DNA of 46,051 bases from Verrucomicrobiota bacterium (lineage in GTDB: Bacteria > Verrucomicrobiota > Verrucomicrobiia > Opitutales > T3Sed10-336), in assembly GCA_003565135.1 (NCBI GenBank), contig PXDC01000250.1:1-46051 (forward strand), in the 5' to 3' direction. Under the pieces are notes generated by a model. That model made no database searches and was not told the DNA's origin. It saw nothing but the letters and a program-made list of their open reading frames with translations. The position numbers were made by a program, and so were the translations under genes. The first letter of the stretch is position 1, and every line of letters begins with the position of its first letter. Positions 7,523-46,051 of this stretch are shown one piece after another.

Positions 7523-7545
7523 CCGGAAAACTCAATTGATCACCC

Positions 7546-11435: not shown

Positions 11436-11442
11436 CCTCGCT

Positions 11443-12072: not shown

Positions 12073-12195
12073 AGTAACCGTAACCCATAGATCCGCTCCC
12101 CGGCGGATGCAAGCCCGTGTGCCATTCCGCATCACCGAGCACCCCTGAATCACTTCACGCGCCATCTACCGGCGAAACGGATTCCCTCAAACACT

Positions 12196-13044: not shown

Positions 13045-13220
13045 GTCGGTCACTCTCGCAACGGTCAGCCCAAATGACAACCCCGAACTCAATCTCCCCC
13101 GTTTATCCCCCTCCCGAAAAGGAACTCCCCCTCCGTCCTGCCTCACGAACGGAGTGGATCCGATTGTTGACACCGGTGTTATCGATCCCGAGTAAGACCT
13201 GCCTCCGCACCGTTGAGCGT

Positions 13221-15068
13221 TCAATACCGCAACCGGTAAAACCGCCGCGTTTCAGCGTCCGCCTGGGGATCAAAAAAAATCGCTTTGCCCTCGGCATCGG
13301 TTTCGATGGTTTCCGCTTCAGTCCAATCGTCAAGGTCCTCCGAAACTTCGACGATATACTCGGTGTTCGCAACCCCGTCGATTTCCAAGCGAAACGGCCC
13401 GCCCGCATCGCCGCGTTTCAGCGTGGCGCCGGGGGGCCCCCGGGGGATAACCCGTTCAACCACTTCAAACCCTTCAAGATGGACCACCGCCAGATCGGTG
13501 GAATACGCGCCGTCCTCGCCGCGCACGGGCACGAAGACGAGCGACTGAATGATGCCGCGCGGGGTTTCAAGGACGCCGTTTCCGTCAAGCGCTGAATGGT
13601 TCACATCCCACCCGGTCACCGATTCATTCGGCAGGTCGAACTTCAGAGTGGTCCATTCTCCTGCACGGACCCGCTTTCCCTCCGGAGGTGCGGTGACGAC
13701 GGCGCCATCTGCTACGGGCGGACCGCCGATGAACTCGAATCCCCCCGTCGGATCACCGGTCGCGCCGTAATCTCCGGTCGATTCGGTATTCCGGACAAGC
13801 AGCAGTACGGTCATGTCCAGGTTGCTGTGAATATTGAACCGAACCGGTTTTTGGAAGGAAACAATCGGCTGCCCGAGGGCCTCGGGGGCCGTGTGAGTGG
13901 ACACACGCAGCCACGGATCCTCGAGCCCGGGAAGAAAGCTCCATCGCAGACGCAGCGCCCGTTTTCCCTTCCCGTCCCCGGGCAGATCAGCTTCTCCGAC
14001 CACCATCGAATCATCCGGAGCGGGCGCCAGGTACTGATCCGTCGATCCTGAGTACGAAGGACGCCGGAGAAACAGCGCCCCGTTGGCCGTAGGCACATCG
14101 AAAAGGTGCTCGAAACTGGCAAACAGGTGCGTGTACGTTAGTGGTCTCTCCCGAACGGTGGCCCAGAGACCGAGATTGTTGCCGACATAGCGCTCGGTTC
14201 CGGGTTCGTTGCCGATTCCTACCGGAACATTCACCACACGCGGATCGGGATCGGAAAAAATAAGGGTGGTCGACCCTCCTCCGTCCAGGTTGATCCCGTG
14301 CACCGCTCCGTATTGTTTCAAAACATACGCCACCTCGGTCGTGGACATTCCCTGGCTGTGATCCGAATTCCGGCCGTCCACCGTAAAAAGGAGCAGCTTC
14401 CCATCATCGGTAACACCCGCCGCTGTGCGCGGATGCAGGCCATCCGCCCAGGTAGCGATGACAGCACCGTTCTGGAGGATCAGCTCGTTGCCGCCAACCG
14501 CGTTGTACAGCGGGACGTCCGGAACCGGGTCGTATCCGCTGAAAAAGTCCGGCGGATCGTGCGAAACGTTTTCGGAAACCGGCGTGACCAGGTCCACCTG
14601 GTTGTCCGCGGTGATGTTGATTCCCGGCCATCCCGCGTAAAACGGCGAATAGACGTCCCCTTCAGAAGCCGCGATATTAAGGAGGTTCATATTGATCCCC
14701 GAAGCATAGTTCGAAAAATTGGCGTTAATCCCGATCTGCAACCCGTGCTCGGAAACAAAATCACGCGTCCGTTGATGAACGGTATCACCGGGAGCATCGC
14801 CGTTCGAAGGCGTGGTGAAAAACCCGATCCCCGGCGCCGATGGATCGATCTCCAGGAGGTGGAGGCTCACACGCCGCGGCTGCTCCTGGTTTATCCGGTA
14901 ATGGGTCACTCCCTCAAACGGCTCGCTGATGATGACCCGGGCACCTTCGGCAACCCAAACCACTGCCACCTGTACCGCCATCAACCAAAGCACACGTCCT
15001 CCGCTCCATCGGATCGGATTCCCCGGCCCCCTTTCCACGGCCCCCTCTCGTTTATACACCTGCTTCAT
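13221..15068 (-). CDS. phosphodiester glycosidase family protein (DUF2233/NAGPA-like) with extra C-terminal beta-sandwich modules
   Basis: 615-aa ORF with an N-terminal TM/signal segment. Hallmark GINLDGGGSTTL block of phosphodiester glycosidases. The C-terminal tail ends ...YIVEVSEDLDDWTE...RRFYRLRY. Confidence 0.75.
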   Translation of the reverse strand: MKQVYKREGAVERGPGNPIRWSGGRVLWLMAVQVAVVWVAEGARVIISEPFEGVTHYRINQEQPRRVSLHLLEIDPSAPGIGFFTTPSNGDAPGDTVHQRTRDFVSEHGLQIGINANFSNYASGINMNLLNIAASEGDVYSPFYAGWPGINITADNQVDLVTPVSENVSHDPPDFFSGYDPVPDVPLYNAVGGNELILQNGAVIATWADGLHPRTAAGVTDDGKLLLFTVDGRNSDHSQGMSTTEVAYVLKQYGAVHGINLDGGGSTTLIFSDPDPRVVNVPVGIGNEPGTERYVGNNLGLWATVRERPLTYTHLFASFEHLFDVPTANGALFLRRPSYSGSTDQYLAPAPDDSMVVGEADLPGDGKGKRALRLRWSFLPGLEDPWLRVSTHTAPEALGQPIVSFQKPVRFNIHSNLDMTVLLLVRNTESTGDYGATGDPTGGFEFIGGPPVADGAVVTAPPEGKRVRAGEWTTLKFDLPNESVTGWDVNHSALDGNGVLETPRGIIQSLVFVPVRGEDGAYSTDLAVVHLEGFEVVERVIPRGPPGATLKRGDAGGPFRLEIDGVANTEYIVEVSEDLDDWTEAETIETDAEGKAIFFDPQADAETRRFYRLRY

Positions 15069-32362: not shown

Positions 32363-33136
32363 TCATCCTCGGGACCCGGACAATCGCCGCCGTACGATCA
32401 GCCACCCGAGCGCGGCCCCCGCCGCCAGCAACCCGGCGGCAGCCGGCTCCGGAATGGCCACGGTCTCGATCCGCGGATGAAAAGCGGCCGTCGGGTGATC
32501 GGCTGAAGCAAAGGCGAATGCCGCCTGAATGTTGTCGTCCGGCGACCATGAGCTCTGCGGCTGCAGGCGCAGATAGATCCAGGAATCCCCCCCGGCGAGG
32601 TATTCGTCGTAACGCTCGGTCAGGTAGTCGGTGATATCGGCGGACACCGTTCCGGCCGCGGTGTTTTCGTCCAGCAGAATGCCGCCGCCCATGCGGGCCG
32701 GCACGTAGCTACCGGAGGCGAACTGACCGGCCGCGCCGGAATCTTCCGCGGCCAACGGTCCGTCCCGCGTGGCATCGGTTCCCCATATTTCGATGCCAAA
32801 GGGGAGGTTCGATTCCCGCGAGAGCAGCTCGGTGGAAAAAGTTCCCGATGCCGGGGGTTCCGCCAGCAGGGAAAGGTCGAACTGGAAGATGGGCCGCGCC
32901 TCCTCGAGGAGGAAACCGCCCAGCGCCTCCGCGGAAACTCGCAACTCCTGCGCGTCGCCCGCACCCGAACTCACGGTGGAGGGGGATCCCTCGATCTGCT
33001 GCCGACGGCTTTCGTAGTCCGAGGGGTCACCCACAACCACGGACGCCAAACCCGGCGTCGTCGATAACGGAAAGGCCAGGACCGCGGCCGCGGCGAGGGA
33101 ACGGTTCAACGAAAAAAGTTTTTGCATCGTATTCAT
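32363..33136 (-). CDS. PEP-CTERM sorting-domain protein
   Basis: Signal peptide (SLAAAAVLAFPLSTTPGLA). The C-terminus IPEPAAAGLLAAGAALGWLIVRRRL is a PEP motif, a TM helix and a basic cluster. ATG at 33136 (or 33127); the track start at 33169 is a TTG. Confidence 0.8.
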   Translation of the reverse strand: MNTMQKLFSLNRSLAAAAVLAFPLSTTPGLASVVVGDPSDYESRRQQIEGSPSTVSSGAGDAQELRVSAEALGGFLLEEARPIFQFDLSLLAEPPASGTFSTELLSRESNLPFGIEIWGTDATRDGPLAAEDSGAAGQFASGSYVPARMGGGILLDENTAAGTVSADITDYLTERYDEYLAGGDSWIYLRLQPQSSWSPDDNIQAAFAFASADHPTAAFHPRIETVAIPEPAAAGLLAAGAALGWLIVRRRLSGSRG

Positions 33137-33178
33137 ACTACACCTGTTCAAACAGCGGTGGTTGATCAAGGATTCCGT

Positions 33179-35017
33179 TTATTCATCGGATTCAATTCGC
33201 ACGCGAATGATGCGATACCCCTCGTCCGGGACCGGTTCCGTATCGCGGACCACCTGTTCGGTCGGTTCGCCCGGCCCGAATTCGTCGATGATCTGCCAGT
33301 TGGGAAAATCCGAGGTGACCTCGACGATGTACCGGACGTCCTCGCCGGCGGGCAGGCGTTCGAAAAGGATCTCCTGGTACTCCTCGCCGTCCACGGTCAC
33401 TGTGCGCCGGCTCGGCAACCGTTCGAGCTCCGGCTCCGGCCCGCTCATGCCCAGGGCGTAGCGTTCCAGGTTGGTCACCCCGTAGTCGCCCGGGTCGGCG
33501 TCGGGAGCGCTGATCGCCGGATCATTGAGCGCATCGATCCCGTACTCACCGCTTTGCCAGAAGCCGAAGGTATCGCCTGCGGCGATACCGACGCGGAGAA
33601 AGCGGGCCTCGTCCTGACCGATGGCACGATTGTCCCGGGCCGTGACCCACTCGGGAGAGCCGGGATGAATCACATCGACCACCTCCCAACCGTCGAGGGA
33701 GCCGCTGCCCATGACCAGGTAGCGCACATCGGGGGCGTACTGGAGGCGGCGGAAGGAAACGGTCAGGTAGCGCTCGCCGTCGTCCTCGTCGATCCCCTCC
33801 TCCACCGGCGATCCCGACGGGGCGCCGTCGATGTCGAAGGCGTACTGCATGAGGCGCGGCACCCCGGTGCCGTCGGGATCGGCCCGCCGCTGCTCCCGAA
33901 GGGAGTCCTCCAGGTCGTCGGGTTCGGTGTGCAGCGCCAGCCAGTTCTCCCAGTCCGTGGTCACAACAAACGCGTTGCTCTGCCCGGCAGCCCCGGAATC
34001 GGGATCCTGCGCCGTCAGCCGGTAATCACCGGTACTGCCGATCGTGACCAGGTGGCCGTCGAGCACGCCGGCTTCGAACGCCTCGGTGGCGCCGGGGTTC
34101 TCCGCGCCGTTTTCGACTTCCAGCATCACGCTTCCGGAAAACGATTCGGCAAGATCGCCGGCGGCGGTTCGGGCGGTGACGGTGATTTCGAACGGCTGCC
34201 CGGCCATCTGGTCGGCCACGGGCTCGAACGCGAACCACGCGACGTCGACGTCGGGATCGACCACAAAATCCCGCGATACCGCGCCGGCTACGCGGAAGAC
34301 GCCGGTGTAGTCGACCGAGCTGCCGGTCGTCTGGTGCAGGCTTTCGCCGGGGAAGAAGTGAACGGTGAGGGGGAGCAGGTCGTCCGGCTGAAGGGTTTCG
34401 CCGGTTCCGGCGTCGACGAGCTGGTCCAGGTTGAAGCGGGCCTCGCGTTGCCCGGCGACGTCGCCCACCACGGCAAACAAGGGCGCGGCGGCACCTTCGG
34501 CTTCCAGCAGGGCCACGGCCCCGTAAGAGTCCTCGGAGAAACGCACGATCACCTGCCGGGATTCGGTCACGAAGCCGGTGGCCCAGGCGGTCCGGATTCC
34601 CGGAAGGGGGGGGTCCTGGGGGGCGAAGGTTCCGTCGGCCGATTCGACTTGAACGTAGTACCGGGTATCCGGTTCGCCCCCGGACACGCGCACCGCGGCC
34701 AGCCCGCGGTCGCGAACGCCGGCGACAAAATCGGTCCGGGCCGCGCGGGCGGCACGATCCATGGAACCGCGGAAAAACGGGACGGCCTGTGGAAGCAACT
34801 CCCGGCGCAGGGAAGCGGTCACTTCTTCGCTTCCGGCTTCGTCGGCAAAAACACGGATACCGGGCTCGTCCGCCGGCCCGTCGTTTTCCCAGAACACCGT
34901 GAAGCCGTCGGGCGTCGGGTGAACGAGGTGAACGGTCGGGACATCGTCGGCCCAGGCAAGGGAGGCGGCCAATCCGGAAAGAAGGCCCCCGAAAACTAGG
35001 TGGCGAAACCGGCTCAT
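33179..35017 (-). CDS. secreted hypothetical protein (FN3/Ig-like modules plus two copies of a C-terminal beta-sandwich module)
   Basis: Signal peptide MSRFRHLVFGGLLSGLAASLAWA. The ATG overlaps the upstream stop as ATGA (35014-35017). Ig-like block FEITVTARTAAGDL...YRLTAQD. Duplicated tail module (..DVRYLVMGSGSLDGWE.., ..DVRYIVEVTSDFPNWQ..). Confidence 0.7.
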   Translation of the reverse strand: MSRFRHLVFGGLLSGLAASLAWADDVPTVHLVHPTPDGFTVFWENDGPADEPGIRVFADEAGSEEVTASLRRELLPQAVPFFRGSMDRAARAARTDFVAGVRDRGLAAVRVSGGEPDTRYYVQVESADGTFAPQDPPLPGIRTAWATGFVTESRQVIVRFSEDSYGAVALLEAEGAAAPLFAVVGDVAGQREARFNLDQLVDAGTGETLQPDDLLPLTVHFFPGESLHQTTGSSVDYTGVFRVAGAVSRDFVVDPDVDVAWFAFEPVADQMAGQPFEITVTARTAAGDLAESFSGSVMLEVENGAENPGATEAFEAGVLDGHLVTIGSTGDYRLTAQDPDSGAAGQSNAFVVTTDWENWLALHTEPDDLEDSLREQRRADPDGTGVPRLMQYAFDIDGAPSGSPVEEGIDEDDGERYLTVSFRRLQYAPDVRYLVMGSGSLDGWEVVDVIHPGSPEWVTARDNRAIGQDEARFLRVGIAAGDTFGFWQSGEYGIDALNDPAISAPDADPGDYGVTNLERYALGMSGPEPELERLPSRRTVTVDGEEYQEILFERLPAGEDVRYIVEVTSDFPNWQIIDEFGPGEPTEQVVRDTEPVPDEGYRIIRVRIESDE

Positions 35018-35895
35018 GGATGGTCTCCTTCCTGTTCGTGATCCCAGCCATCGATCGGCCGCATGGGCGACGAAAGCCGTTCCAGACCGGGCCGCCCTTC
35101 GTGCCGGAGAATGGTTTCCCCGCCCACCAGCACCACCACGCGGCGGTTTCCGGCGGCGCGGAGCTGGCGGGCTTTCTCCTCCGCCCGACCGTCACCCCGG
35201 TCGATCAGGACCAGCAGGTCGTCCCCGGATGGCTCACCGGCCGATTCCTGGTCCCCGGCCGCCAGTGCGGCATGCGGCGGCACGGTTTCGCCGCTGCGCA
35301 CGACGCGGGCCTCCGGAAAAGCCGCGGCGAGATCGGTCAGTTCCGGCTCGTCCCCGCTCTCCTCGAGCGGCGCCGCCTGCGGCCCCGACGGTTCCCGGCG
35401 CAGGTCCACCAGGGTCACCCCGCTGCCCTGGGCGGCGGTGAGTTGTTGATAGGTGATCCCGGGAACGGAATCCGTTCGCAGGCCCGACGCCCCGGTAATG
35501 GATAACCCGGCCGACTCCCAACCGGCAAGGCCGCCGCGAAGCGTGCGGGCGGTGCGGCCGTCGCGGAGATTGTCGGCATAGTCGGCGGCGAGAACCCGTC
35601 CCAGGCCATCGCCGTAGAGCACGATCTCGCGGTTGCGCGGGAGCGGGCGGCTGAAAAGGACGCTTCCCGGAATGTTGATGGCGCCGGGAAGGTGTCCCCG
35701 GCGGTACTCCGGGTTGTCGCGGATGTCGACGACGAGTGGGGGCGAAGCGGATTCCAGTCGCTCGGCCAGTTCGGCCGGCGACATTCCCGTGACGGCGTCG
35801 GTTCCCGGCGAGAGCGCCAGGCCGCACCCGGCAATCCCGCTCAGAATAATCGTTTTCAGCTTCGGCTTCATGATACTTCGTTTCCCTTGGTTCAT
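35014..35895 (-). CDS. lipoprotein with two rhodanese-homology domains lacking the catalytic cysteine
   Basis: Lipobox LSGIAGC. Rhodanese blocks VVDIRDNPEYRRGHLPGAINIP and REIVLYGDGLGR...GGLAGWE, with a second domain LVLIDRGDGRAEEKARQL. The only Cys is the lipobox Cys. ATG at 35895 overlaps the upstream stop as ATGA; the alternative ATG is 35871. Confidence 0.75.
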   Translation of the reverse strand: MNQGKRSIMKPKLKTIILSGIAGCGLALSPGTDAVTGMSPAELAERLESASPPLVVDIRDNPEYRRGHLPGAINIPGSVLFSRPLPRNREIVLYGDGLGRVLAADYADNLRDGRTARTLRGGLAGWESAGLSITGASGLRTDSVPGITYQQLTAAQGSGVTLVDLRREPSGPQAAPLEESGDEPELTDLAAAFPEARVVRSGETVPPHAALAAGDQESAGEPSGDDLLVLIDRGDGRAEEKARQLRAAGNRRVVVLVGGETILRHEGRPGLERLSSPMRPIDGWDHEQEGDHP

Positions 35896-38800
35896 TCGGG
35901 TTTCCATCCGCTTACCGGCCCGGCGAGTTCCACCAACAGGAGGGCGACCTCGGGAATGGGGAAATCCGGTCCCACCAGTGACCCGTCCTCCACCTCCACC
36001 GCGCGCCACTGTCCGCTGTAAGCGTCGAGGAGGCGGACGGCATTCACGTTGTCGCCACCGATCTGGGCCACCAGGTCGGAGACCCGGTAGCCGGCCGGGA
36101 ACGCGCTGTACCCGAGGGCGTTGATCCCGGCCTCGAAATCGACGGCCTCCCTCGCCCGGTCCCCGAGATCGAGGAGCCGGCTTTGGTCGAAGCGCATCCA
36201 GAGGAAATCCCCGGCCACGAGGGCAAAATCCTCGCCCGAGGGGGCGCCCGCCGCGTCATCCCATACCGCGACCTCGGTCACCACTTCCGGGGCCAAACTG
36301 TGATACCGTTTGACGCTCTCCACACCGGCGGCTTGCCGCCAGCTCTCCAGGAGGGCGAAAGCCCCGCCGAAGCGGTCGGCCAGGGTGGCGGTCACCACCA
36401 CCGCGTTACGGTTTTGGAAGACCGGCTGCAGGGCCGGCAATTCGGCCGTGCGCACTTCCGTGGAGCCACCGGAGTCCTCTTCCCACACGAGGTGGCCGCC
36501 GGCCAGGCCGGCGCGGCGTTTGGCACTCAGGGAATTGGTCAGCGGCACGGAATTGCCGGATTCCAGGTTGTGCAGGACAAAGTTGGCGCTCTCCGGTCCG
36601 GCCGAGTCCTCCTCCACGATCATCCAGTACCCCTGGAGGTAGGGCCGGGTCTGATTGTGGGCGCTGTCGGTCAGGCGGAGTTCCTCGTCGCGCAGCAGGT
36701 CGAAGCCGGAAATCTGCACCACACCGTCGCGGGTGTCCTGCCAGACGATCCAGTGCCCGAAGATCGCCGGATGGTACTGGCCGTCGATAATCCCGGTGAT
36801 CCGGCGTCGTTCTCCCGATTCCAGGTCGGCAAAGTAAATCTCGCCCGGCCCGACGTCGCGCTGGTCGCGCCAGACCACACGTCCGGCGTGAATCGCCGCC
36901 TCCACCTGATCGGCGGGTCCCGGGTAGACCTCGGCGGTTTCGCCGGTCTCCAGGTCGCGGGCGACGAGGATTTCCGGGGCCGACGAGTCTCCGGCCGGCC
37001 GGCTCTGCCACACGACCCACGGGTAATCGACGATCGGCCGGGTCTGCCGCAGGGAGGCGTCATCGGTCAACCGCTCGGGTGCCGTTCCGGCCTCGAGGTC
37101 GGCCATCCAGATGTCCCAGCCGCCGTCGGACCGGCGTTTCTGCCAAACGGCGTAACGCCCGTCGGTGTGCGGCCGCTCGCCGGAGTCGAGAAGCTCCGCC
37201 GCGCCACTTTCAGCGGTCAGGTCACCGGCAAAAATCCGCCATTGCCCTTCCGGGCGGGCCTGCCAGACCGCGCGGCCGCCGCGGGCCGACGGGTGCCGAC
37301 CGGCGGCCGAAACCGACGCCAGGAGTTCCGACTCCGCGGTCAGGTTCCCGATCCGGACCAGCCGCGTGGCGAAACGGTCGTGCCCGACGCCGTCGGAGAG
37401 GGTCACCTTCACCGTGTACCAGCCCTCGGGCAGGAGAATTCCGTCATCGTCGCGTCCGTCCCATTCGAACACCACCGACTGCCCGCCGACATCGCCGAGC
37501 GACTCGGTTCGGACAAGGGTCAGAGTCTCGAGGTCGGAGCCGTAGGACGGATCGTAGGTCCAGGTGTAACGGGTCGGCGAGTCGATCGACTGCCATTCGC
37601 CGCCGCGCTCGCCTAAGAGGTCGAGGCGCTGTTCGCCCGGATCGAGCGGGCCCGGCTCGAACGACTCCCCGACGGGGGCCTCGGGCCGGAAGAAGCTTTC
37701 GTTCAGCGTCCAGCGGAACAGGTCGAGGTCCTCGGGACCCTCGACGGTGATCACCGGCCGTTCCTCGTGCGAGGGCGTCGCCGGCAGGCCGGCCAGGTCA
37801 AACTCGTGGGCGTCCCCGGACACGGTCCAGGAGACCGCCAGGGCCTCCTCCTCGGGCAGGTAGGGGCCGCTGTGGTGGCGGGCCAGCACTTCGAGAGCCA
37901 CCGATCCGGACAGGTCCTCAAGTACCAGCGGATCGGATACGGCCCGTTCCTCCGACCACTCGCCGCCGTCGACGCGGTAGCGGTAAAAGTCGGCGTGGGC
38001 GCCCGACACCGCGATCTCGGCGTGGTCGCGGGGAGTCGGCGTCGGCGGCACGCCCTCCAGCACCGGCCAGGCCACGACCCCGGCGTACACCTCGGCCACC
38101 GCCTCGAGCGGCACGGGAGCCGCCTCGGCCTCGAAGGCGATAGCGGCGCGGTCCGGCCGCACCGAAAGCGAGTCGCCGCTCAGGGTCACCACCATCGGCT
38201 CGGAATCGAACTCGGCGAAGCCCGGGGCCGCCCCCGGCAGAACCACCGTGGCGGCGTTCAGCTCTTCTTCGTTGCCGAAAGCGTCCTCGGAGTAGTACTC
38301 GATCAGGTAGGTGCCGGGTTCGTCCAGGCTGAACGGAATGGCCGGCTGAAAGTCGCCGCCGTCGATCCGGTAGTACATGCTGACCGGGCTGTCGTCCTCG
38401 GCGATGAAGTAAATATCCGTGTCGCGGGTTACGTAGACCGTACCGTCGTCGGCCACCGTGTAGTCGCCGGCAAAATAAATCCCGGTCACCGGCGGGTCCG
38501 TGTCCTCTTCCGTGGCGGCGTAGTGCACGGTGTATTCGTAGTACTGGCCCAGTTCGACGAAATCGAAAACATGCAGGTACTCGAGACGGCGGTTGGTCGG
38601 CCGCTCGTAGCGGTAGCTGGTCCAGGTATTGTGAGGATTGAGCTCCTTCCCGTCGGAGCGGACCACCTTGTCGATGTCGTAGCGGTCCTGTCCCGGATCG
38701 TCGACCCGGATGTAGCCCCAGTTCTCAAAATCGGTCTGCACCCCGACCACCGCCGTCCGGTCCTGGTCGAGGTCCCGCACGACTTCGGCCTGCTGGAGGT

Positions 38801-39896
38801 GGTTGACCGGCACCACGTTCCCCTCGCTCTCGTACATGGCGTCGGGGATCAGGTTCTCGGTATCGTCGGTCACGGCCAGAAAATCGGTCACGTCGTCCCG
38901 GCCGGGCTGGTCGTTGAGAACCTCGCGGAGCAGGAAGTGGGCGTCGAGGGAAACGATGACCGAGGTCTCCTCGCCGCCGAGTTCGGAGGCGTGGGTGTAG
39001 CTGGCGTTGAAATCGACAAACTCCCCGGACAGCGACACGATCATGTCCCAGGCCCCCTTGCGGGCCTCCCCGGGCGGGATGTCGCCGAGATCGACCACGA
39101 GACTGGCGCGGTCGAGGGGCGAATCCATGACGCGGGCGCCCAGGAGCTGGGCGACCAGCGGAAGCTGCTGCTGGTTGTCGACGATTTTCGGCTGCTGCGA
39201 ATCGATCTGCAGCTCGCGCGCGGTGCCATAGCCCACGTTGCGCACCAGCACCCCGAGGGTGAAAGGAACGGGGCTTTCCACACGGTCGGTGAAGGGATCG
39301 TTGGCCTGGACATCGCGGGGGAGGAAGTAGGTGATGTCGAGCTGGGGTTCGGGCCGGACCGTGATCGTGTCCGGGAGGGCGAACATGTTTTCCCTCGGAA
39401 TCTCCACCCCGCCGAGTTTGCCGCCCAGGTCGCAACCGATCAGGTATTCGCGTCCCCGGGGATCGGTCCCGCCGGCGTCGATGGTCGGGATGATGAACCA
39501 GCGGATGACGGCCGTGCGGGTGGGCTGGATGACGCCGTCGCCGTCCACCCGGTTGACAAACTGCAGCTCGGGATCGCGGACAAAAAAGAGGTCCGAGGCA
39601 TCGCTGCCGTCCTCCGGATCTTTAAAGGTCAGCTCGGCAAAGAAATCGGTAATCGCGTCTTCCCCCGCATTGTTGGTGACCTCCAGGGTCGCCTCGAAGC
39701 CGATACGCTCCAGGGTCAATTCCTGCTCGATCTCGATCCGCGCCTGCGCGCACCACCCCTGGAACTGTTGCTGGGCGTCCGCCAGGGGGGACGCGACGAG
39801 CAGCACCGCCAGCCAACCGGGCCGCCGGTACCATTTTCCGACTCCCCGGCCAAGGGTTCGCAATCCAAATTCCACCATAAACGCTATCGTACTCAT
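35892..39896 (-). CDS. large secreted protein: Ig/CARDB-like modules, OmpL47/chitobiase-C-like module, FlgD-Ig-like module, seven-blade beta-propeller
   Basis: 1334-aa ORF with a signal peptide (WLAVLLVASPLADA). DIYFIAEDDSPVSMYYRIDGG...YYSEDAFGNEE. VVFEWDGRDDDGILLPEGWYTVKVTLSDG. Seven repeats of about 45 aa of the type h-VWQ-x-R-x5-7-I-h-x-x-DL. The start overlaps the giant ORF stop as ATGA. Confidence 0.8.
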   Translation of the reverse strand: MSTIAFMVEFGLRTLGRGVGKWYRRPGWLAVLLVASPLADAQQQFQGWCAQARIEIEQELTLERIGFEATLEVTNNAGEDAITDFFAELTFKDPEDGSDASDLFFVRDPELQFVNRVDGDGVIQPTRTAVIRWFIIPTIDAGGTDPRGREYLIGCDLGGKLGGVEIPRENMFALPDTITVRPEPQLDITYFLPRDVQANDPFTDRVESPVPFTLGVLVRNVGYGTARELQIDSQQPKIVDNQQQLPLVAQLLGARVMDSPLDRASLVVDLGDIPPGEARKGAWDMIVSLSGEFVDFNASYTHASELGGEETSVIVSLDAHFLLREVLNDQPGRDDVTDFLAVTDDTENLIPDAMYESEGNVVPVNHLQQAEVVRDLDQDRTAVVGVQTDFENWGYIRVDDPGQDRYDIDKVVRSDGKELNPHNTWTSYRYERPTNRRLEYLHVFDFVELGQYYEYTVHYAATEEDTDPPVTGIYFAGDYTVADDGTVYVTRDTDIYFIAEDDSPVSMYYRIDGGDFQPAIPFSLDEPGTYLIEYYSEDAFGNEEELNAATVVLPGAAPGFAEFDSEPMVVTLSGDSLSVRPDRAAIAFEAEAAPVPLEAVAEVYAGVVAWPVLEGVPPTPTPRDHAEIAVSGAHADFYRYRVDGGEWSEERAVSDPLVLEDLSGSVALEVLARHHSGPYLPEEEALAVSWTVSGDAHEFDLAGLPATPSHEERPVITVEGPEDLDLFRWTLNESFFRPEAPVGESFEPGPLDPGEQRLDLLGERGGEWQSIDSPTRYTWTYDPSYGSDLETLTLVRTESLGDVGGQSVVFEWDGRDDDGILLPEGWYTVKVTLSDGVGHDRFATRLVRIGNLTAESELLASVSAAGRHPSARGGRAVWQARPEGQWRIFAGDLTAESGAAELLDSGERPHTDGRYAVWQKRRSDGGWDIWMADLEAGTAPERLTDDASLRQTRPIVDYPWVVWQSRPAGDSSAPEILVARDLETGETAEVYPGPADQVEAAIHAGRVVWRDQRDVGPGEIYFADLESGERRRITGIIDGQYHPAIFGHWIVWQDTRDGVVQISGFDLLRDEELRLTDSAHNQTRPYLQGYWMIVEEDSAGPESANFVLHNLESGNSVPLTNSLSAKRRAGLAGGHLVWEEDSGGSTEVRTAELPALQPVFQNRNAVVVTATLADRFGGAFALLESWRQAAGVESVKRYHSLAPEVVTEVAVWDDAAGAPSGEDFALVAGDFLWMRFDQSRLLDLGDRAREAVDFEAGINALGYSAFPAGYRVSDLVAQIGGDNVNAVRLLDAYSGQWRAVEVEDGSLVGPDFPIPEVALLLVELAGPVSGWKPE

Positions 39897-42800
39897 TGTT
39901 CGCTCACCTCCTGTCCTCCTTCGAGGTCGATAAACAGGCCGCCGCAGAGGTCCTCGGCGAGGATGCCGTCAGCGAAGAAGGCCCGCTCTCCGGTAACCTG
40001 GAAATTGTAAACGGTATGGGTTCCCTCGATACGCTCGTTGGCCACCACGCGCCAGAACCGGCGCTCGGAATCGGTCAGCCAGTCGCCTTCATCGAGGGAG
40101 TCGACAAAGCGCCAGCCTTCGCCGTCGACCCAGAGTCGGTGCTCGCCGGTGACCCGGAGCTCCCGGGTTTCCTCCCCCCCGACGGCCACCAGTCGCAGAT
40201 GCCGCAGGTTCTCCGATTCCAATTCGTAGGCCTTGCTGACCTCGGCGTAGGCACCGTTGATGCCGGTACCGGTGCGCACGAGGTCGCCGCGGGTGATCGT
40301 TTCGATGGGCCGGCGGGCGCCGTCGGCCATGAGCACCTCGGTACCCGCGGGAAAGCACCCGTCCCCGCCCTGTTGGAAGGGAGACGGCGTCCGGCTCCCC
40401 GGCGGGCCTGAAGAACGGCTTCCCGGACCCGGCATTCCGCCGAAGAACGACTGCGTGGCGCAGCCGATCAGCTCGCCCAGCGCCTGGCCGGCCATTTCGG
40501 CAAAGTCGAGGACACTGGTCGGAATATCCCGCGCGGCCATGATCCCGCTTGCCGCGGCCAGGCCGACGGCGGCGGCCGTACCCAGATTTCCGGTACGCTG
40601 ACTGACGTACTCGCCCTGGGCCGCCATGTCGGCGATGGCGCGAATGCCCTCGGCAAAATCGGCGGTACTGGTCGCCCCGCAGGACGTATCGAGTCCTGGC
40701 ACCAGGGGGACCGCCTCCGGATCGCTGCCCGCATCCGCTTCCAGGGCGAGCGCAGTGGGTTCGGGTTCCCCGTTCCCGCCGAAATCCTCCGCCACCCGGA
40801 GACGGGCCGGAATCTCCACCCGTTGCTCGGGGCCGAGTTCCGGAATGTACTCGATCAGGGGCCGCACGGTCAGCACTCCCGAGCTGGTTCCGGTAATATC
40901 GATGTCACTGACCTTGATCAGGCCCTCGTTCCGCAGTTCGTAGGTAATGGTGGTCTCGAAGCCCGGCTCGACGTTTTCGAACTCGTGCATGGGCGGCGTC
41001 ATGACCAGCACCGGGGCGGGCACCCGGGTTTCGAAGGTCTGCTCGAGCACGATGTCGTACCGGTCGGTAAACGGCACGGGCACGACGTTGAAGCGGACGG
41101 TCACCAGGCTTCGGTCGAGGATGGGCTGGACCGGCACGACCTGGTCGGGCACCACCTCCACCGTACCGGCCCGGCCGGAATGGCCCGACGCGGTGACCTG
41201 CCAGGACCACTGCCCTTCCTGGAGATCCTCCACCAGGAGCTCGCCCTCGGCATCGGTGCGGTAGGGACCGCGCTCGATGTTGTTGGTGGTGCTGCGGAGT
41301 CGGATGGAGGCGTTGGGCACGGCCTGTTCGACGATGTTCTCCACCTGGAAAAGAACGTCGCCCTCAAGATCGGAAGTGATCTGGGCGAAGAGGTTCACCT
41401 CGAAATCCCCCACCGCGTTATCGCCGGTGACCAGGATCACGTCGTCGTAGAAACCGAGGTCGACGTCGTCGGACGGCAGGTAGACAACCTGGAAGGAGAA
41501 AGAGTCGCCGACGGCGAGGTCGGGGAGGTGGGCGTAACCGTCGTCCTCCACCGGAAGGTTGATATGCATCCAGTCAATTTCCTGGGGAGGCCGCAGCCGG
41601 ACGCCCTCCAGAGACCGCAGGCCGTCGTTTTCGATGACCACCTCGCGGCTGCGCTGATCGCCCCGGTCGATGGAGAGGTCGACGTACCCGGCCGTGGGAC
41701 GGGCCACGCTGAGGATGGGGATGGCGGGAAGCAGCGTCAGTTCGCCCTCGAAGCGGGTGGTGGCGCCCTCGGCCGTACGGAAGGCAAACTCCGCCATGGC
41801 GTAATCGGGCGCGTCGTCCGCGGCCTCAAGTTGCAGGGTCACACGGCTGCGGGAGGAGGCCGGCAATGCGTCGGGGGCGCCAAGCAATTGACCGGTAACG
41901 GTGTCGATTTCGGATTCCACCGGCTCCCCGGTCCCCGGGTCCATCTCCACTACCCAGGCGCGGAAGGAATCGAGCTCGAAGCCTTCGAGAGGCACGTCCC
42001 CGGGGTTGTTCATGCGGATATCGAAGTCCATCGTATCATTCTTGGACATACGGATATTCCCGCGCCCCGGATTCGAATAGATTCGGTGGATGGTGACCTC
42101 GGCCTGGTTGAGGACGTCGACGACGTCGGGGTGGGCGGCCCAGAAGGAAATGGTTCCGGAGAAGCCGGGGAAGGGATCGTAGGGAAACGCAAAGTTGCCC
42201 TCGGCATCGGTCTCGATTTCCTCGAACCAGGTGTACCCGCGGGCGGAGAATCCGATGCGCAGCGTCGTTCCCGGCCGCGGTTCCCCGGTCTCGCGGTCGA
42301 CGGCGCTGCCGCTGAGCGGTATGGTGGCGTCGTTGGCAAAGGTATCCCCGTCGACCTGGAGTTTACCGAAGTACTCGGTCTCGGTCAGGGTGGTTTCCAT
42401 GGTTCCCGAGATCGGACCGGAAACCCGCTCCCGCGACGTGCCGATCCCGTTGTAAAGGGTGGGCGCCTCTACCCGGATGGTCGCCTGGCCCTCTTCGCTG
42501 AGCCCTTCCGGGACGAGAATATCGAGAAAGGTCCCCTCCCGCGATTCCCCCGGAGGAATCCGCAGGTAGCCGCGCCCGTCGGACGTGAATTCGAGACCGG
42601 AGATCGCCCGGTCGAAGGACGCCCCGCTGACCGCTTCGCCGAAGCGGTCGAGGACGGTGAGCTCCAGTTCCCCCGGTTCCCCGCCGAAGGCCTCGACCAC
42701 GACGACTTCGGCGTCGGCATAGCCGCGGTTGTGGATACGGGCACGGAACTCGTTGAGACCCCCGGCCAGGGGAACGCTCGGCGCGGAGACGGAAATCCGG

Positions 42801-45800
42801 GTCGGGGGCGAGCGGTAGTCGGAATAGGTCCGGTCGAAGAGGTACCGGGCAGAGGAAATCCCGTCGTCCGACTCCTGCTTGACCTCGACGGTGAACAAGT
42901 GTCCGCCGGACAAGCGGGTCACGGCCGGGTAAGGGAGACTCCAGACGCCGTCCCCGTACGCGGGGACCGTTTCCGAAACGTCGATTCCCTCCTCATGGGT
43001 GCCGGTCGTGGCGTGGGTCCGGCGCACGAGCGCTTCGGTGACCGGCCACGCTTCGTCGGCACGGTTAACCGCGCGGATCTCGTACCGGTCGAAATAGCTG
43101 CCCATCAGGGACCGCTCCTGACCGTCGGCATCCGGATTGATGCGCAGGTCGAGCTCCACCGGGTAGACGGTAACCGGGCGGGCCGCGCTCTCGCGGTCCT
43201 GGTCGTCGATGGCCCGCACGGTGTAGACGGTGAGGTCGTCCTCGACGAGGTCGGGATCCTGAAAGTGCTGCTGGGTAAGCGGGTCGCCGGTCAATTGCTC
43301 GCCGTCGCGGTAGACGTGGAAACCCACGGCCGCGTCGTCGGGCGAGTCCCACTGGAGAAGGGGTCCGAGTCCCGGTTCGACAGTAGCAACCAGATCGGTC
43401 ACGGCGCCGACAAAGAGCTCGATCGTCACCGGATCGCTGAGGTTCTCATTGCCGACCTGGTCGACCGAGGCGACCGCGTAGCTGATGACGCCCCGGGGCG
43501 GATGATCGGAGATTTCACGCGGTGTCGTCGTTGTTCGGATGACTTCGCCGTCACGGTACACGCGGTATTGGTGCGGGACGTCCCCTTCCGAGGGGGCGTC
43601 CCAGTTGATGCGGACACCGGTTTCGCCGAGTTCAACGGTGACGTTCTCGGGCTTTTCCGGGGGAGTCCGGTCGGACTGGGTCACAAGCATGGGCGAAGGA
43701 TCGCTCTCCGCTCCCTGACGATCGGCGGTGACAACGTAGCGGTAGATCCCGTCCTCGGGCGGGAGATCCAGGTATTCGAGGTCGTCGAGACCGGAAACAA
43801 TACGCGTCTCCGGCGGCTGGATACCGTCGCCGGCTTCGCGGTACAAGTGATAAACCTCAGCTTTGTTCGAGGCGGACCAGGAGACGCGGATGTAGCCCCC
43901 GGGGAGGATTTCTCCGGCGATCTCCAGCGGCCGGTCGGGAGGAGGCGGGGTGTCGCCGGTATAAATCTCGAGCTCCTCTCCCTCGGTGACACGTGTGCCC
44001 TCGTTGCCGAGTGGGTCGACCGTCTGGAGATTGAAATACCCGATCCCGGTACCCATCGATTCCTCCAGCACCAGCTCCCCGGACCACGAGGTCCCGCTGC
44101 CGGAAAGATCGAGGGAAACCTCGGACGCACCCGGCGGGTCGAAGGCCAGGGAGGGCGGAGCCCCCTGCGGTGCCGGCTTGCTGAGTTCGAGTTCCACCTC
44201 GATCGCGATTCCCTCCTCCGGAATCGCTACCGGAGGCGCGGCGTCGACCGTCACAATACCGGTGGGACGGGTGAGGTCAAAGACGAGCGGGTTGCCCTCC
44301 GGCGATCCCGAAAACGTGTTGCCGAAAAGGTCGGTGCCGCTCACACGCACCACCGCTTCTCCAGACGAGGCGGAAAGGTCGTTCACCTGGTAGGTGCCGG
44401 CATATCGGTTCGTGCCGTCGGCGGTAAGCGATACGGCCACCGGCTGGGAGAAACCCTCCGGCCGGATGGTCAGGCTCGGGGTGCCGTCCAGGGGTTCGCC
44501 GGCCTGAAGAGTGATCCCCAGTTCGCCCGGACCCACCGGCATGGGAAGGTCGTAGGACACCGTAAAGTCCGGCGGCGTGGTGTTGAGGGTGACCGACTTG
44601 ACGTTGGAAAGGCCGCTGACGTTACCCGCCGCATCGAACCCGACCACGGCGATCCCGTACTCGCCGTCGGGCAGGTCTTCGAGGAAGTAGCGGGTGGTGG
44701 CGAGCAGGTCCGTTTCGCCTTCCGCATCGGCATACGACTCGAGGGAATCCTCGCTCCAGACAATGCGGAACGCGGTCGCGCGTTTGCCATCATCGGCGAA
44801 ACGCCACCGGACTTCGACGCCGAGATCGCGGTCGAACTCGACGACTTCGAGAATCGCCGGTGCGGGCGGGACGGTGTCCCGCCTGACCGTGACCGGCGAC
44901 GAGGAGATCGATCCGGCCGGATCGCTCACGCGGACGACGAATTCGTTGCTTCCCTCGACCAGGGGAACGTCGCTGAAAAGGAAGGTGCCGTCGGCAAGCG
45001 CCTGACCTTCGGCCACCGTGCTGGCATTGCGGCGCAGGCGGACCGGGGCGTCCGGTTCGGCGGTTCCGGACACGTCGACGTCGCCATCCGCGGTGATCAG
45101 GCCATCGGCCGGCGCGGCGATCACCGGCCGGGCCGGCGGCTGGGGGCGGACGAGGACATTGACCTCGCGCGCGGTCACGTTACCCGCGGCATCGACCGCC
45201 TCGAGCGCCACGCGGTAGAGGTCCTCCTCCATTTCGCGAATGTCCCAGGTTCCGGAAAGCGGGGAGGATGCCGACTGCAGGACCGTTTCACCGTTCACCG
45301 TGAACGCGAGTGAAACGAGGCCGAGTTCGGCCTCGGCCGCACCGGTCACGTCGATCGGCCGGTTGATTTCGTCGCCGTCAGCCAGGCTGAATGCGGTGAT
45401 TTCGGGCCCGCCGGTGACGTACTCGATGTCGAGGGTAAGGGTTTCGCTGATGACGCCGGTCGATCCGAGGAACTGAACGTAGACCGTTTTGAAACCGCCG
45501 GTATCGGAGAGTTCGAACCGCTGCTCGATGGGGGCGGCGGCGTAGAGGTCATCGCTGCCCGGGTCGGTGTCGATATCGACAAACGGCACGCCGACAAAGG
45601 CCGAGTCCTCGCTGGCGCGGAAGGCGACGGCATTGGCGGAGGCGAACACGAGATCGATTTCGGGATTGCCGACACGGACCACGCCGTCCGCGGTGCGAAC
45701 GTCCGGATAAAGCACCGGCTCATCGTCCAGGGGCTCTCCCGCGTCGACCGGTCCGGAAAGACCGTCGGCAATGCCACCGGTGTCGTCGGTCCCCCACCAG

Positions 45801-46051
45801 TTCCCGCGTGCGTCGACAAGGGATCCCTCCCCGACGGTTGCGTTTAGGGTGTTCCGCTTGAGAACGGATTGGTTGATTTCGAGAGTCGAACCGCCGGACA
45901 CCTCGGCCCCGGTGTCATTAAAAATCAGGTACGCGCCCTCCGTAACAAGAGTGGCGCCGCCTTGCAGGGAGAGCCCGGCCGGGCTGTTGTGGGTCGCGCG
46001 CAACCCGGTGATTTCGGGCGAATCGGTTCCGTCGAGGGTCAGGCCCCCGCC
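39893..46051 (-). CDS. giant secreted adhesin-like protein, 5'-truncated by the window edge, ending in a Hint (Hedgehog/intein-like) domain
   Basis: The reading frame stays open to position 46051, so the TTG at 46003 in the track is not the real start. The visible part has a beta-helix end (..GNWWG..) and many Ig/FN3-like modules, including three tandem FN3 units with (Y/F)H(L/V)YR(E/D)G-type cores around 43150-43930. It also has carboxypeptidase-regulatory-like modules (IRLRSTTNNIERGPYRTDAEGELLV) and a C-terminal GDG-CFPAGTEVLMADG...VTGEH Hint domain. Confidence 0.85.
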   Translation of the reverse strand, partial: GGGLTLDGTDSPEITGLRATHNSPAGLSLQGGATLVTEGAYLIFNDTGAEVSGGSTLEINQSVLKRNTLNATVGEGSLVDARGNWWGTDDTGGIADGLSGPVDAGEPLDDEPVLYPDVRTADGVVRVGNPEIDLVFASANAVAFRASEDSAFVGVPFVDIDTDPGSDDLYAAAPIEQRFELSDTGGFKTVYVQFLGSTGVISETLTLDIEYVTGGPEITAFSLADGDEINRPIDVTGAAEAELGLVSLAFTVNGETVLQSASSPLSGTWDIREMEEDLYRVALEAVDAAGNVTAREVNVLVRPQPPARPVIAAPADGLITADGDVDVSGTAEPDAPVRLRRNASTVAEGQALADGTFLFSDVPLVEGSNEFVVRVSDPAGSISSSPVTVRRDTVPPAPAILEVVEFDRDLGVEVRWRFADDGKRATAFRIVWSEDSLESYADAEGETDLLATTRYFLEDLPDGEYGIAVVGFDAAGNVSGLSNVKSVTLNTTPPDFTVSYDLPMPVGPGELGITLQAGEPLDGTPSLTIRPEGFSQPVAVSLTADGTNRYAGTYQVNDLSASSGEAVVRVSGTDLFGNTFSGSPEGNPLVFDLTRPTGIVTVDAAPPVAIPEEGIAIEVELELSKPAPQGAPPSLAFDPPGASEVSLDLSGSGTSWSGELVLEESMGTGIGYFNLQTVDPLGNEGTRVTEGEELEIYTGDTPPPPDRPLEIAGEILPGGYIRVSWSASNKAEVYHLYREAGDGIQPPETRIVSGLDDLEYLDLPPEDGIYRYVVTADRQGAESDPSPMLVTQSDRTPPEKPENVTVELGETGVRINWDAPSEGDVPHQYRVYRDGEVIRTTTTPREISDHPPRGVISYAVASVDQVGNENLSDPVTIELFVGAVTDLVATVEPGLGPLLQWDSPDDAAVGFHVYRDGEQLTGDPLTQQHFQDPDLVEDDLTVYTVRAIDDQDRESAARPVTVYPVELDLRINPDADGQERSLMGSYFDRYEIRAVNRADEAWPVTEALVRRTHATTGTHEEGIDVSETVPAYGDGVWSLPYPAVTRLSGGHLFTVEVKQESDDGISSARYLFDRTYSDYRSPPTRISVSAPSVPLAGGLNEFRARIHNRGYADAEVVVVEAFGGEPGELELTVLDRFGEAVSGASFDRAISGLEFTSDGRGYLRIPPGESREGTFLDILVPEGLSEEGQATIRVEAPTLYNGIGTSRERVSGPISGTMETTLTETEYFGKLQVDGDTFANDATIPLSGSAVDRETGEPRPGTTLRIGFSARGYTWFEEIETDAEGNFAFPYDPFPGFSGTISFWAAHPDVVDVLNQAEVTIHRIYSNPGRGNIRMSKNDTMDFDIRMNNPGDVPLEGFELDSFRAWVVEMDPGTGEPVESEIDTVTGQLLGAPDALPASSRSRVTLQLEAADDAPDYAMAEFAFRTAEGATTRFEGELTLLPAIPILSVARPTAGYVDLSIDRGDQRSREVVIENDGLRSLEGVRLRPPQEIDWMHINLPVEDDGYAHLPDLAVGDSFSFQVVYLPSDDVDLGFYDDVILVTGDNAVGDFEVNLFAQITSDLEGDVLFQVENIVEQAVPNASIRLRSTTNNIERGPYRTDAEGELLVEDLQEGQWSWQVTASGHSGRAGTVEVVPDQVVPVQPILDRSLVTVRFNVVPVPFTDRYDIVLEQTFETRVPAPVLVMTPPMHEFENVEPGFETTITYELRNEGLIKVSDIDITGTSSGVLTVRPLIEYIPELGPEQRVEIPARLRVAEDFGGNGEPEPTALALEADAGSDPEAVPLVPGLDTSCGATSTADFAEGIRAIADMAAQGEYVSQRTGNLGTAAAVGLAAASGIMAARDIPTSVLDFAEMAGQALGELIGCATQSFFGGMPGPGSRSSGPPGSRTPSPFQQGGDGCFPAGTEVLMADGARRPIETITRGDLVRTGTGINGAYAEVSKAYELESENLRHLRLVAVGGEETRELRVTGEHRLWVDGEGWRFVDSLDEGDWLTDSERRFWRVVANERIEGTHTVYNFQVTGERAFFADGILAEDLCGGLFIDLEGGQEVSEQ

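Follow-up and report, generated by a model that had tools for sequence, protein, structure and literature searches.

What does an autoprocessing domain do at the very end of a giant bacterial protein, with no cargo behind it to release? The question is raised by a gene on contig PXDC01000250.1 of a Verrucomicrobiota bacterium (assembly GCA_003565135.1). The window, that is, the whole stretch of DNA analysed here, is 46,051 nucleotides long, and the gene lies at its right-hand end. An earlier sequence-only reading had placed a Hedgehog-type Hint domain at positions 39896-40357, at the extreme C-terminus of the giant protein. These coordinates were right; the strand, which had been left unstated, is minus. 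We report that the terminal domain belongs to the Hint (Hedgehog/intein) superfamily. Far from being peculiar to one gene, it marks a conserved family and a four-gene cassette, in which translation of the gene after the giant one is coupled to that of the giant gene. Judged from its residues, the domain probably cleaves the giant protein at a Gly|Cys junction by thioester-mediated autoprocessing.

Fold and identity of the terminal domain

The open reading frame (ORF) of the giant gene occupies 39893 to beyond 46051 on the minus strand. Its 5' end lies beyond the window, 2052 codons and the stop are visible, and the GC content at third codon positions (GC3) is 0.81. The last 154 codons (40357-39896, minus strand) encode the Hint domain plus a short tail. 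The N-terminal junction of the domain reads GDG|C1-FPAGTEVLMADG, and the peptide following the end of the preceding linker (...GGDG) reads CFPAGTEVLMADGAR. This translation matches the 154 residues quoted in the earlier reading, including the GDG|Cys junction and a TxxH motif at 69 and 72 residues after the Cys. At its other end the domain finishes with ...VYNFQVTGERAFFADGILAEDLCG, followed by GLFIDLEGGQEVSEQ* (15 residues past Gly139). The stretch before block G is VYNFQVTGERAFFADGILA, after which comes the atypical block itself, E135-D136-L137-C138-G139 (Table 1).

Six Pfam models of the Hint clan matched the domain coherently, namely Hint_2, Hom_end_hint, PT-HINT, Vint, Intein_splicing and Hint, all just under their gathering scores. 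Hint_2 (PF13403) covered profile positions 2-142 of 147 with 27.5-27.8 bits (cut-off 28.4; E = 4.6e-6). PT-HINT (PF07591) reached 24.4 bits (cut-off 27.7), and PF01079 reached 19.2 bits (cut-off 29.7) on residues 1-78 only, the N-terminal half. Among NCBIfam models, only those of intein N-terminal regions matched. The best sequence matches in the PDB were, in order, 8w20 (2.5e-8), the bacterial intein-like domain (BIL) 2lwy of C. thermocellum and the Tetrahymena BUBL BIL2 (6y75/6tmm).

An AlphaFold2 (AF2) model of the Hint domain, built on a 15-sequence alignment, was all-beta, with a predicted local distance difference test score (pLDDT) of 86.3 and a predicted template modelling score (pTM) of 0.80. 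The model was ordered to about residue 151 (Gly139), with block G and Cys138 inside the ordered part, and disordered from residue 152 on (pLDDT <50). When it was compared with the PDB by Foldseek, the top matches were BIL2/BUBL 6y75 (E = 5e-11), BIL 2lwy and the gp41-1 and DnaB mini-inteins, at probability 1.0. The Hedgehog structures 6tyy and 1at0 followed at ranks 16 and 24, also at probability 1.0. There were 62 PDB matches at E<=1e-3, and the best 50 of these 62 were all BIL, intein or Hedgehog Hint structures. Taken together these matches are far beyond chance, and we take the Hint fold of the giant protein's C-terminal domain to be certain.

Pfam, PDB, HMMER, AF2 and Foldseek agree on a Hint domain at the extreme C-terminus of the giant protein, and both the profile search and the structural comparison bore out this part of the sequence-only reading. 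Its label 'Hedgehog-type' is imprecise and not the best one by descent: in fold and sequence alike the domain is closest to bacterial intein-like domains, mini-inteins and PT-HINT, with Hedgehog lower in the Foldseek ranking.

Predicted catalytic residues and their conservation

Conservation was assessed over 106 distinct terminal Hint domains, collected from cluster representatives and genome loci and roughly 30-50% identical. Like Cys1, the predicted nucleophile of the N-S acyl shift, His73 of block B, Trp82 and Cys138 are invariant (106/106 each). Position 70 is Thr in 100 sequences and Ser in 6; Phe2 is kept in 101, Trp76 in 105 and Gly139 in 96 of the 106. A semi-conserved acidic residue, D/E49 (60/106), falls beside Hedgehog D46 in the alignment. 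Position -1, just ahead of Cys1, holds Gly in 61/106 and Ala in 17/106, and the linker that leads to it is Gly-rich (Gly/Pro) in relatives, with a length of 20-40 aa.

Block G departs from that of inteins. The penultimate position 135 is H in 52, Q in 22, E in 18, R in 13 and Y in 1 of the 106 sequences. Position 136, which corresponds to the intein Asn, is D in 81, E in 12, H in 7 and Q in 6, and N was found in none; D136 of the window copy aligns with N143 of BIL2 (6y75). Because the Asn position is Asp in the window copy and never Asn among these relatives, canonical splicing is unlikely, as the earlier reading had proposed. Position 137 is variable, so that +1 in the window copy is Leu. 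Cys138 stands two residues past the intein Asn position, and the hidden Markov model (HMM) of the family aligns it with Npu DnaE Cys+1, one residue being skipped. The earlier statement that the domain has 'no His-Asn plus nucleophile' is right for His-Asn, which is absent, but not for the nucleophile: Cys138-Gly139 of the sequence LCGG aligns with intein C+1, with a one-residue insertion.

A family of terminal Hint domains

A word-indexed homology search with the Hint domain alone gave zero matches. An exhaustive HMMER scan of 1.84 billion representatives gave 3407 matches at E<=1e-3, of which 247 were at E<=1e-10. Among the best 150 matches, 94 carry a single Hint domain ending <=45 residues from the C-terminus. 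Many of these 94 proteins are 3,000-7,200 aa long (up to 7,220), and no toxin domain was found in any of them. The family statistics given here rest on these best 150 representatives and on the 40 genome loci described below. Of 35 family members, 26 matched PT-HINT, the commonest Pfam family, at E<=1e-3 (best match 5.4e-15); Hint_2 was matched by 18 of the 35. In the sources the terminal-Hint proteins are annotated as hypothetical; one is from a Puniceicoccaceae metagenome-assembled genome (MAG). The literature searched gave no description of a terminal, cargo-less H-D-x-C-G Hint family or of its cassette, which is not proof of absence.

The other 56 of the best 150 matches include proteins with several Hint domains, often in tandem. 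P0002, P0005, P0006, P0011, P0061 and P0103 consist of 3-5 Hint domains placed head to tail, and each domain ends in a canonical His-Asn. The spacers before the next Cys-Phe are K-G-G(-G) or similarly short and Gly-rich. Such proteins are in effect intein arrays with 'exteins' of 2-6 residues.

The C-terminal tail and coupling to the next gene

About 15 residues without toxin or cargo had been noted after the domain. We found 15 disordered residues, and then a stop codon that overlaps the next ATG. In the family the tails after Cys-Gly measure 10-45 residues and their sequences are unrelated. The absence of cargo after the Hint domain holds family-wide.

What the tail does contain is the start signal of the following gene. 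The stop codon of the giant gene and the ATG of the next gene overlap as ATGA at 39896-39893, and the motif AGGAGG at 39912-39907, which codes for Q-E-V, lies 10 nt upstream of this ATG. The stretch 39893-39920 holds two AGGAGG motifs. Where the ATGA overlap occurs, most loci also have a GGAGG-like motif in the final ~20 nt of the giant gene (GGAGG(T)...NNA-TGA). The overlap imposes a final codon NNA (AAA, CGA, CAA, CCA, GAA), hence the bias of the last residue to K/R/Q/P/E. An apparent tail motif, (K/T)-E-V-x-(K/R/Q/P) or G-G-x-(K/R), was considered as a sorting or recognition signal and rejected, since it is the translation of GGAGG plus the final NNA of the ATGA overlap. The tail is a spacer bearing the ribosome-binding site of the next gene, not cargo or a sorting signal.

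A conserved four-gene cassette

The cassette consists, in order, of the giant gene with its Hint domain and the genes for a ~1,330-1,411-aa immunoglobulin-like (Ig)/beta-propeller protein (partner 1), a double rhodanese-like protein (partner 2) and a ~470-690-aa secreted protein (partner 3). Besides the window, where the genes downstream of the giant one occupy 32363-39896 on the minus strand, it was found at loci L001-L043, L048 and L049. A genome scan with the 1,330-aa partner, with one genome per species (GTDB representatives), gave 40 loci. This distribution is a lower bound, because the scan relied on two exact peptide patterns.

A long ORF with a terminal Hint domain lies directly upstream of partner 1, on the same strand, in 39/39 loci with sufficient upstream DNA. 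The rhodanese and ~600-aa genes follow in order at every locus with sufficient downstream DNA. Giants that were looked up independently had the cassette in 5/5 cases, including ones of 6255 and 7220 aa. Within the available data the association of Hint and partner is complete both ways. Three independently retrieved loci showed one and the same gene order, with a fourth protein of 470-640 aa that has no Pfam match. Partner 1 of the window is 48-61% identical to the gene after the giant in L001-L003 and is better conserved than the giant itself. No immunity-like small gene was found after the Hint domain, where the ~1,330-aa partner always comes next. All partners were predicted to have signal peptides. 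The cassette proteins are called 'hypothetical protein' or are unnamed in the sources, and most have no Pfam match.

By record label, 34 of the 40 partner-found loci are from Verrucomicrobiota, with the labels Opitutia/Opitutales, Puniceicoccaceae, Verrucomicrobiia, Akkermansiaceae, Chthoniobacterales, Haloferula, Brevifollis and Oceanipulchritudo. Opitutia bacterium CSSed10_289R1 has the nearest locus, with 81% identity. The other six carry different or anomalous bin labels, including Bacteroidales, Bryobacteraceae, Bifidobacterium (two) and 'Akkermansia muciniphila' (L006, L012, L023, L027 and L031 are among them). We suspect that the non-Verrucomicrobiota labels of cassette contigs are binning or labelling errors. 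Two cassettes with different giants were present in one MAG in two cases, L008 and L019 (CAYOIB01 bin) and L007 and L036 (SLLG01 bin); the cassette can be multi-copy in one genome.

Partner proteins

The N-terminal 390 residues of partner 1 are highly conserved, and AF2 predicted three Ig-like sandwiches in this part (pLDDT 93). Before the first Ig domain lies a near-invariant arm, AQQQFQG[WVL]-C (residues 40-49; 39752-39779 in the window, minus strand). Its Cys49 is the only invariant Cys of partner 1, and of any partner, in the motif AQQQFQG[WVL]C-A-R-V-K-I-E-I; the window copy reads AQQQFQGWC. It stands 4-8 residues past the predicted cleavage site of the signal peptide. Cys49 is also invariant in 55 wider homologs, including Desulfobacterota-type records, where it comes after ...(E/D)S(V/I/L). 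This residue might be a disulfide partner or an acyl acceptor. We also considered the N-terminal 390 aa (motif WCAQ...) as a thioester domain or enzyme, an idea that the model of Ig-like sandwiches, with weak matches only to integrin, pilin and factor XIII beta-barrel structures, does not support.

Homologs of the N-terminal domain of partner 1 occur beside other giants, an Rhs giant in L044 and a CARDB/lectin giant in L047, and in L046 without a giant neighbour. Since these giants have no Hint domain, the partner 1 domain is a general companion of giant surface proteins and not Hint-specific. L044 (ENA ERZ25039485 contig_5803, 1-13909) is an analogous cassette from another lineage. Its 4090-aa giant has an Rhs/YD shell and a Cys-rich, toxin-like tail of ~130 aa after DPLGL, and is followed by a 668-aa homolog of the N-terminal Ig domains of partner 1, a 375-aa protein and a PEP-CTERM protein. 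The comparison suggests that, among related systems, Hint and Rhs core can replace each other as autoproteolytic ends.

For partner 2 the listed ORF (35014..36009) begins at an upstream GTG and is probably over-extended at its 5' end. Read from MKPKLK, the protein has a signal peptide with a possible lipobox, SGIAGC, which orthologs do not share. Its active-site loops, YGDGLGR and DRGDGR, both lack Cys, and over 32 sequences there are zero conserved Cys. Lacking an active-site Cys, partner 2 is not a sulfurtransferase, and the idea that it supplies a persulfide or thiol to the thioester was rejected, as neither of its rhodanese-like domains has a catalytic Cys. The gene after partner 3 is subclade-specific, found only in L001, L003-L005 and L007-L009.

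Proposed mechanism and alternatives

We infer the chemical steps, the cellular location and the roles of the partners from the identity and invariance of residues and from the precedents of inteins and Hedgehog. On these grounds the reading already proposed from the sequence, in which an N-S acyl shift at Gly-Cys leads to the upstream protein being released or transferred, is still the one that we favour, and we consider autoprocessing at this junction probable. Cys1 would attack the carbonyl of the preceding Gly, with T70/H73 assisting, to give a linear thioester at the end of the flexible linker. The acyl group would then be relayed to Cys138, where the fold ends, to form a branched thioester as at intein Cys+1 and Hedgehog C143. 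Alternatively or additionally, a Cys1-Cys138 disulfide might form and restrain the reaction under oxidising conditions. A nucleophile would finally resolve the thioester, freeing the ~17-kDa Hint domain with its tail and leaving the linker Gly as the C-terminus of the giant protein. As position 136 is Asp, Glu, His or Gln and never Asn, neither a succinimide-driven C-terminal cleavage nor splicing would be expected. Water (release) and a specific acceptor (ligation) are about equally likely as the resolving nucleophile. Since the Hint domain itself has no acceptor-binding region, the partners probably supply a docking site, the acceptor or both in trans.

Several points weigh against such autoprocessing. 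Should the Hint domain reside in the periplasm or outside the cell, oxidation may leave its cysteines inert. A domain whose sole job is its own removal needs a further rationale. The window copy has Glu and not His at the penultimate position of block G, as do 18 of the 106 sequences, and every Pfam Hint score of this copy lies just below the gathering cut-off.

Ligation in place of release is possible; on the whole it is less likely than not, but if cleavage occurs we hold it to be about as likely as release. The Cys138 thioester would be attacked by a defined acceptor, either partner 1 (Cys49 by the QQQFQG arm) or an amine or hydroxyl of the envelope, and the C-terminal Gly of the giant would become covalently joined to it. 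Such a reaction would parallel, in bacteria, Hedgehog cholesterolysis or sortase anchoring. Simple cleavage does not obviously call for both an invariant second Cys and a complete lack of Asn; this pairing matches Hedgehog, in which the branched thioester awaits a nucleophile from outside. Self-removal alone has no obvious benefit. The strict synteny with a secreted partner, the tie between the two genes by a Shine-Dalgarno site and the ATGA overlap, and the standing of Cys49 as the only invariant Cys among the partners, kept in 55 wider homologs, also favour ligation. So does BUBL BIL2, the best structural match, whose system has been proposed to attach a C-terminal Gly to target molecules. 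However, the unconstrained tail offers no acceptor-binding region in cis, and Cys49 is independent of the Hint domain, being present in the homologs beside the Rhs and CARDB giants. Cys49 is not N-terminal, so that classic native chemical ligation is excluded, and the N-terminal region of partner 1 is plain Ig-like, without a catalytic fold. Characterised bacterial Hint domains (BILs, and PT-HINT by prediction) mostly only cleave (PMC4031507).

Carried further, ligation would make the cassette a self-contained ligation and anchoring system. The Gly thioester on Cys138 would be passed to an acceptor from the co-translated partners, either the Cys49/QQQFQG arm or an envelope molecule that they present, and a fibre of several thousand residues would be tethered to the Verrucomicrobial surface. 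We offer this only as a tentative proposal, a little less likely than ligation as such.

That the Hint domain does not cleave at all is unlikely. It would then be a docking or redox module, a structural plug for the partners whose cysteines form structural or regulatory disulfides. The predicted export to an oxidising compartment fits this, as do the four family-conserved cysteines in the last ~250 residues (Cys-108, Cys-35, Cys1 and Cys138), the replacement of the penultimate His in half of the family and the non-enzymatic nature of the partners. However, Thr70 and His73 are as invariant as the cysteines; they are a hallmark of the N-S acyl shift and have no role in a structural disulfide. 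Scissile junctions typically have a small residue at -1 and a flexible linker, as here, and a catalytically dead Hint family of this size did not turn up in the present searches.

Splicing, or a C-terminal cleavage joining or freeing the tail, with Asp136 cyclising and Cys138 as the splice nucleophile, is very improbable. Cleavage or splicing is possible in inteins that end in Asp or Gln, and block G is intein-like (VLVHD versus VLVHN) with a Cys closely after. However, the tail of 10-45 aa has no conservation at the protein level and its sole 'motif' is the ribosome-binding site of the next gene, so that neither its ligation nor its release would have a plausible purpose. Position 136 is E/H/Q in 25/106 and position 135 is non-His in 54/106, and with the Cys at +2 the final S-N shift would not have the 1,2-aminothiol geometry.

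It is just as improbable that the domain is a functionless relic, a pretoxin Hint that lost its toxin and is drifting. In favour of this, PT-HINT is the commonest Pfam match (26/35), and a giant Rhs toxin takes the corresponding place in the related cassette of another lineage. Against it, both the catalytic residues and the location at the C-terminus are kept, the former without variation, over 106 sequences from several Verrucomicrobiota lineages (by record label) at 30-50% identity; none of the 94 terminal members retains a toxin, and the Hint domain is always followed by the ~1,330-aa partner without an immunity-like small gene.

Architecture upstream of the Hint domain and other features of the window

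Upstream of the Hint domain, Pfam domains Big_13, Big_7, fn3, RGI_lyase-like and CarboxypepD_reg were matched in the giant protein, the last at residues 1576-1641 of the window fragment. The ortholog P0151 (5000 aa) is 49% identical to the fragment over 2073 aa with its C-terminal 2035 residues. It served as proxy for the N-terminus of the window giant, which lies outside the window; an exact look-up of the 1334-aa partner 1 gave no record from which this end could be recovered. P0151 begins with a signal-like sequence, as do orthologs of the giant.

In an alignment of 34 giants the last ~520 residues form a conserved module. Its pre-terminal beta-rich part contains the motifs VPVPFTDRYxIxxEQTFET and PLIxYxPxLxPxQ. 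The helical module that follows it has two family-conserved cysteines, Cys-108 (40681-40679) and Cys-35 (40462-40460), and a Gly/Ala-rich, moderately hydrophobic helix at 40588-40532. The best 19-residue Kyte-Doolittle value of this helix is 1.39 in the window copy and 0.7-2.9 over the family, which is borderline. The pre-Hint hydrophobic helices resemble glycine zippers, for example xIGCxIGxxL in relatives. Removal of the Hint domain could expose this segment as a membrane-active or membrane-anchoring element. For a stop-transfer arrangement, with the helix as anchor and the Hint domain in the cytoplasm, the hydropathy is borderline and the downstream positive-inside signal inconsistent.

The rest of the window (192-32296) is ordinary chromosome. 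It contains dprA and genes for transaldolase, a PfkB kinase, an RNase D-like exonuclease, an NAGPA-like phosphodiester glycosidase and a glucuronyl esterase-like protein. An arginine-biosynthesis run at 25.3-29.9 kb matched the ArgC, ArgJ, ArgB and ArgD families. No tRNA genes were found.

Table 1. Features of the giant gene and its downstream partners in the window
Feature	Positions	Strand	Basis or remarks
Giant surface-protein gene, 3' fragment	39893..46051	-	ORF, GC3, Pfam, 49% identity to P0151
Pre-terminal beta-rich module: CarboxypepD_reg-like domain, then two conserved domains	40682..41362	-	34-giant alignment
Pre-Hint helical module	40436..40681	-	Family alignment, hydropathy
Flexible Pro/Gly/Ser linker MPGPGSRSSGPPGSRTPSPFQQGGDG, ending in Gly(-1)	40358..40435	-	Translation, family alignment
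Hint domain proper, Cys1-Gly139	39941..40357	-	Pfam Hint clan, AF2, Foldseek
Cys1, predicted N-S acyl shift nucleophile	40355..40357	-	Invariant 106/106; Hint profile position 1-2
Block B, T70-G-E-H73	40139..40150	-	T70 at 40150-40148, H73 at 40141-40139
Atypical block G, E135-D136-L137-C138-G139	39941..39955	-	Family consensus [HQER]-[D>E,H,Q]-x-C-G
15-residue tail GLFIDLEGGQEVSEQ	39896..39940	-	Predicted disordered; no protein-level constraint beyond close relatives
Translational-coupling signals within tail codons	39893..39912	-	AGGAGG 39912-39907 and ATGA 39896-39893
Partner 1, 1334 aa	35892..39896	-	Signal peptide, three Ig-like domains, Ig/FlgD_ig, beta-propeller, C-terminal domain
Partner 2, secreted, double rhodanese-like	35014..35871	-	Pfam Rhodanese 1.4e-17; probable start MKPKLK
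Partner 3, 612 aa, secreted	33179..35017	-	No Pfam or PDB match; no Cys; few invariant residues
Fifth gene, 268 aa	32363..33169	-	Signal peptide and PEP-CTERM-type tail (IPEP...hydrophobic...RRR)

Implications

The known roles of Hint domains are splicing in inteins, toxin release in PT-HINT and BILs, and cholesterol ligation in Hedgehog, and a terminal family without cargo fits none of them. The family is large and almost entirely from Verrucomicrobiota. Its members are terminal, avoid Asn, keep an invariant second Cys and are locked together with three uncharacterised secreted proteins. It offers a tractable bacterial system for studying the uses of a Hint-generated thioester outside animals, and it bears on how giant surface proteins of 5,000-7,000 aa are matured or anchored in Verrucomicrobiota. 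A natural 'half-reaction' Hint domain could serve for C-terminal thioester generation or ligation of proteins. The family also gives a first handle for naming the hypothetical cassette genes in Verrucomicrobial MAGs. If ligation and anchoring proved true, the cassette would represent in bacteria, and without an enzyme, a counterpart of Hedgehog cholesterolysis and sortase anchoring, and possibly a living relative of the two-cysteine, Asn-less Hint chemistry ancestral to Hedgehog processing.

Comparison with known Hint systems

Like PT-HINT, the family has its Hint domain, with Cys1 and TxxH, close to the C-terminus of bacterial proteins that are very large, rich in repeats and Sec-exported. 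The best PDB sequence match, 8w20, is similar in having a Hint domain ~160 residues before the C-terminus of a 1368-aa protein. PT-HINT is defined by its place just before the toxin domain that it releases (PMC3482391). Here, in contrast, only an unconstrained tail of 10-45 aa follows, without a toxin or a downstream immunity gene, and the Asn position is never Asn and is followed by an invariant Cys-Gly. The family thus fails the defining PT-HINT context, a toxin downstream.

The class 1 mini-inteins (Ssp/Npu DnaB, gp41-1 and Npu DnaE) share recognisable blocks A, B, F and G and the fold (probability 1.0). They differ in that the present family has no terminal Asn, a nucleophile displaced by one residue and no functional C-extein, and in that its host is a variable giant surface protein without homing endonuclease or signs of mobility. 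The domain is not an intein, since it lacks the Asn, the +1 nucleophile, a real C-extein and a conserved host protein.

BILs, represented by 2LWY and BUBL BIL2 (6Y75/6TMM), were the best structural matches (E = 5e-11 to 6e-10; template modelling score 0.7-0.8). The Pfam family Hint_2 is often equated with B-type BILs. The criterion for the B-type is lack of similarity to intein block G, whereas block G here is intein-like (VLVHD). BILs are found in non-conserved secreted bacterial proteins, and in them cleavage dominates over splicing (PMC4031507, PMC7765530). Those described are internal and flanked by further domains, but the present Hint is terminal, with a fixed four-gene context. A-type BILs end in His-Asn (PMC4031507). 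The window copy has Glu-Asp, that is, Asp plus a Cys at +2, in an intein-like block G. Without His-Asn, it is not an A-type BIL.

The Hedgehog C-terminal domain (HhC) is likewise the terminal autoprocessing domain of a secreted protein, with a Gly|Cys-Phe junction, TxxH and no C-terminal Asn. A further shared feature is C143, a conserved second Cys where the Hint module ends, to which Cys138 would correspond in role by analogy. Hedgehog C143 carries a branched thioester that is the counterpart of the C+1 intermediate of inteins (PMC12054796) and forms a disulfide with C1 that protein disulfide isomerase (PDI) must reduce (PMC3051819). The differences from Hedgehog are a bacterial host, sequence and fold similarity weaker than that to BILs and inteins, and a second Cys that in a manual alignment lies two residues further from the block F Asn/Gly. 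There is no sterol-recognition or other acceptor-binding extension, only 15 disordered residues past Gly139. Without a sterol region, and with PF01079 below threshold, the domain is not a Hedgehog/Hog domain. In summary, the terminal Hint domain looks most like BILs and mini-inteins, and by analogy it would work most like the first two steps of Hedgehog.

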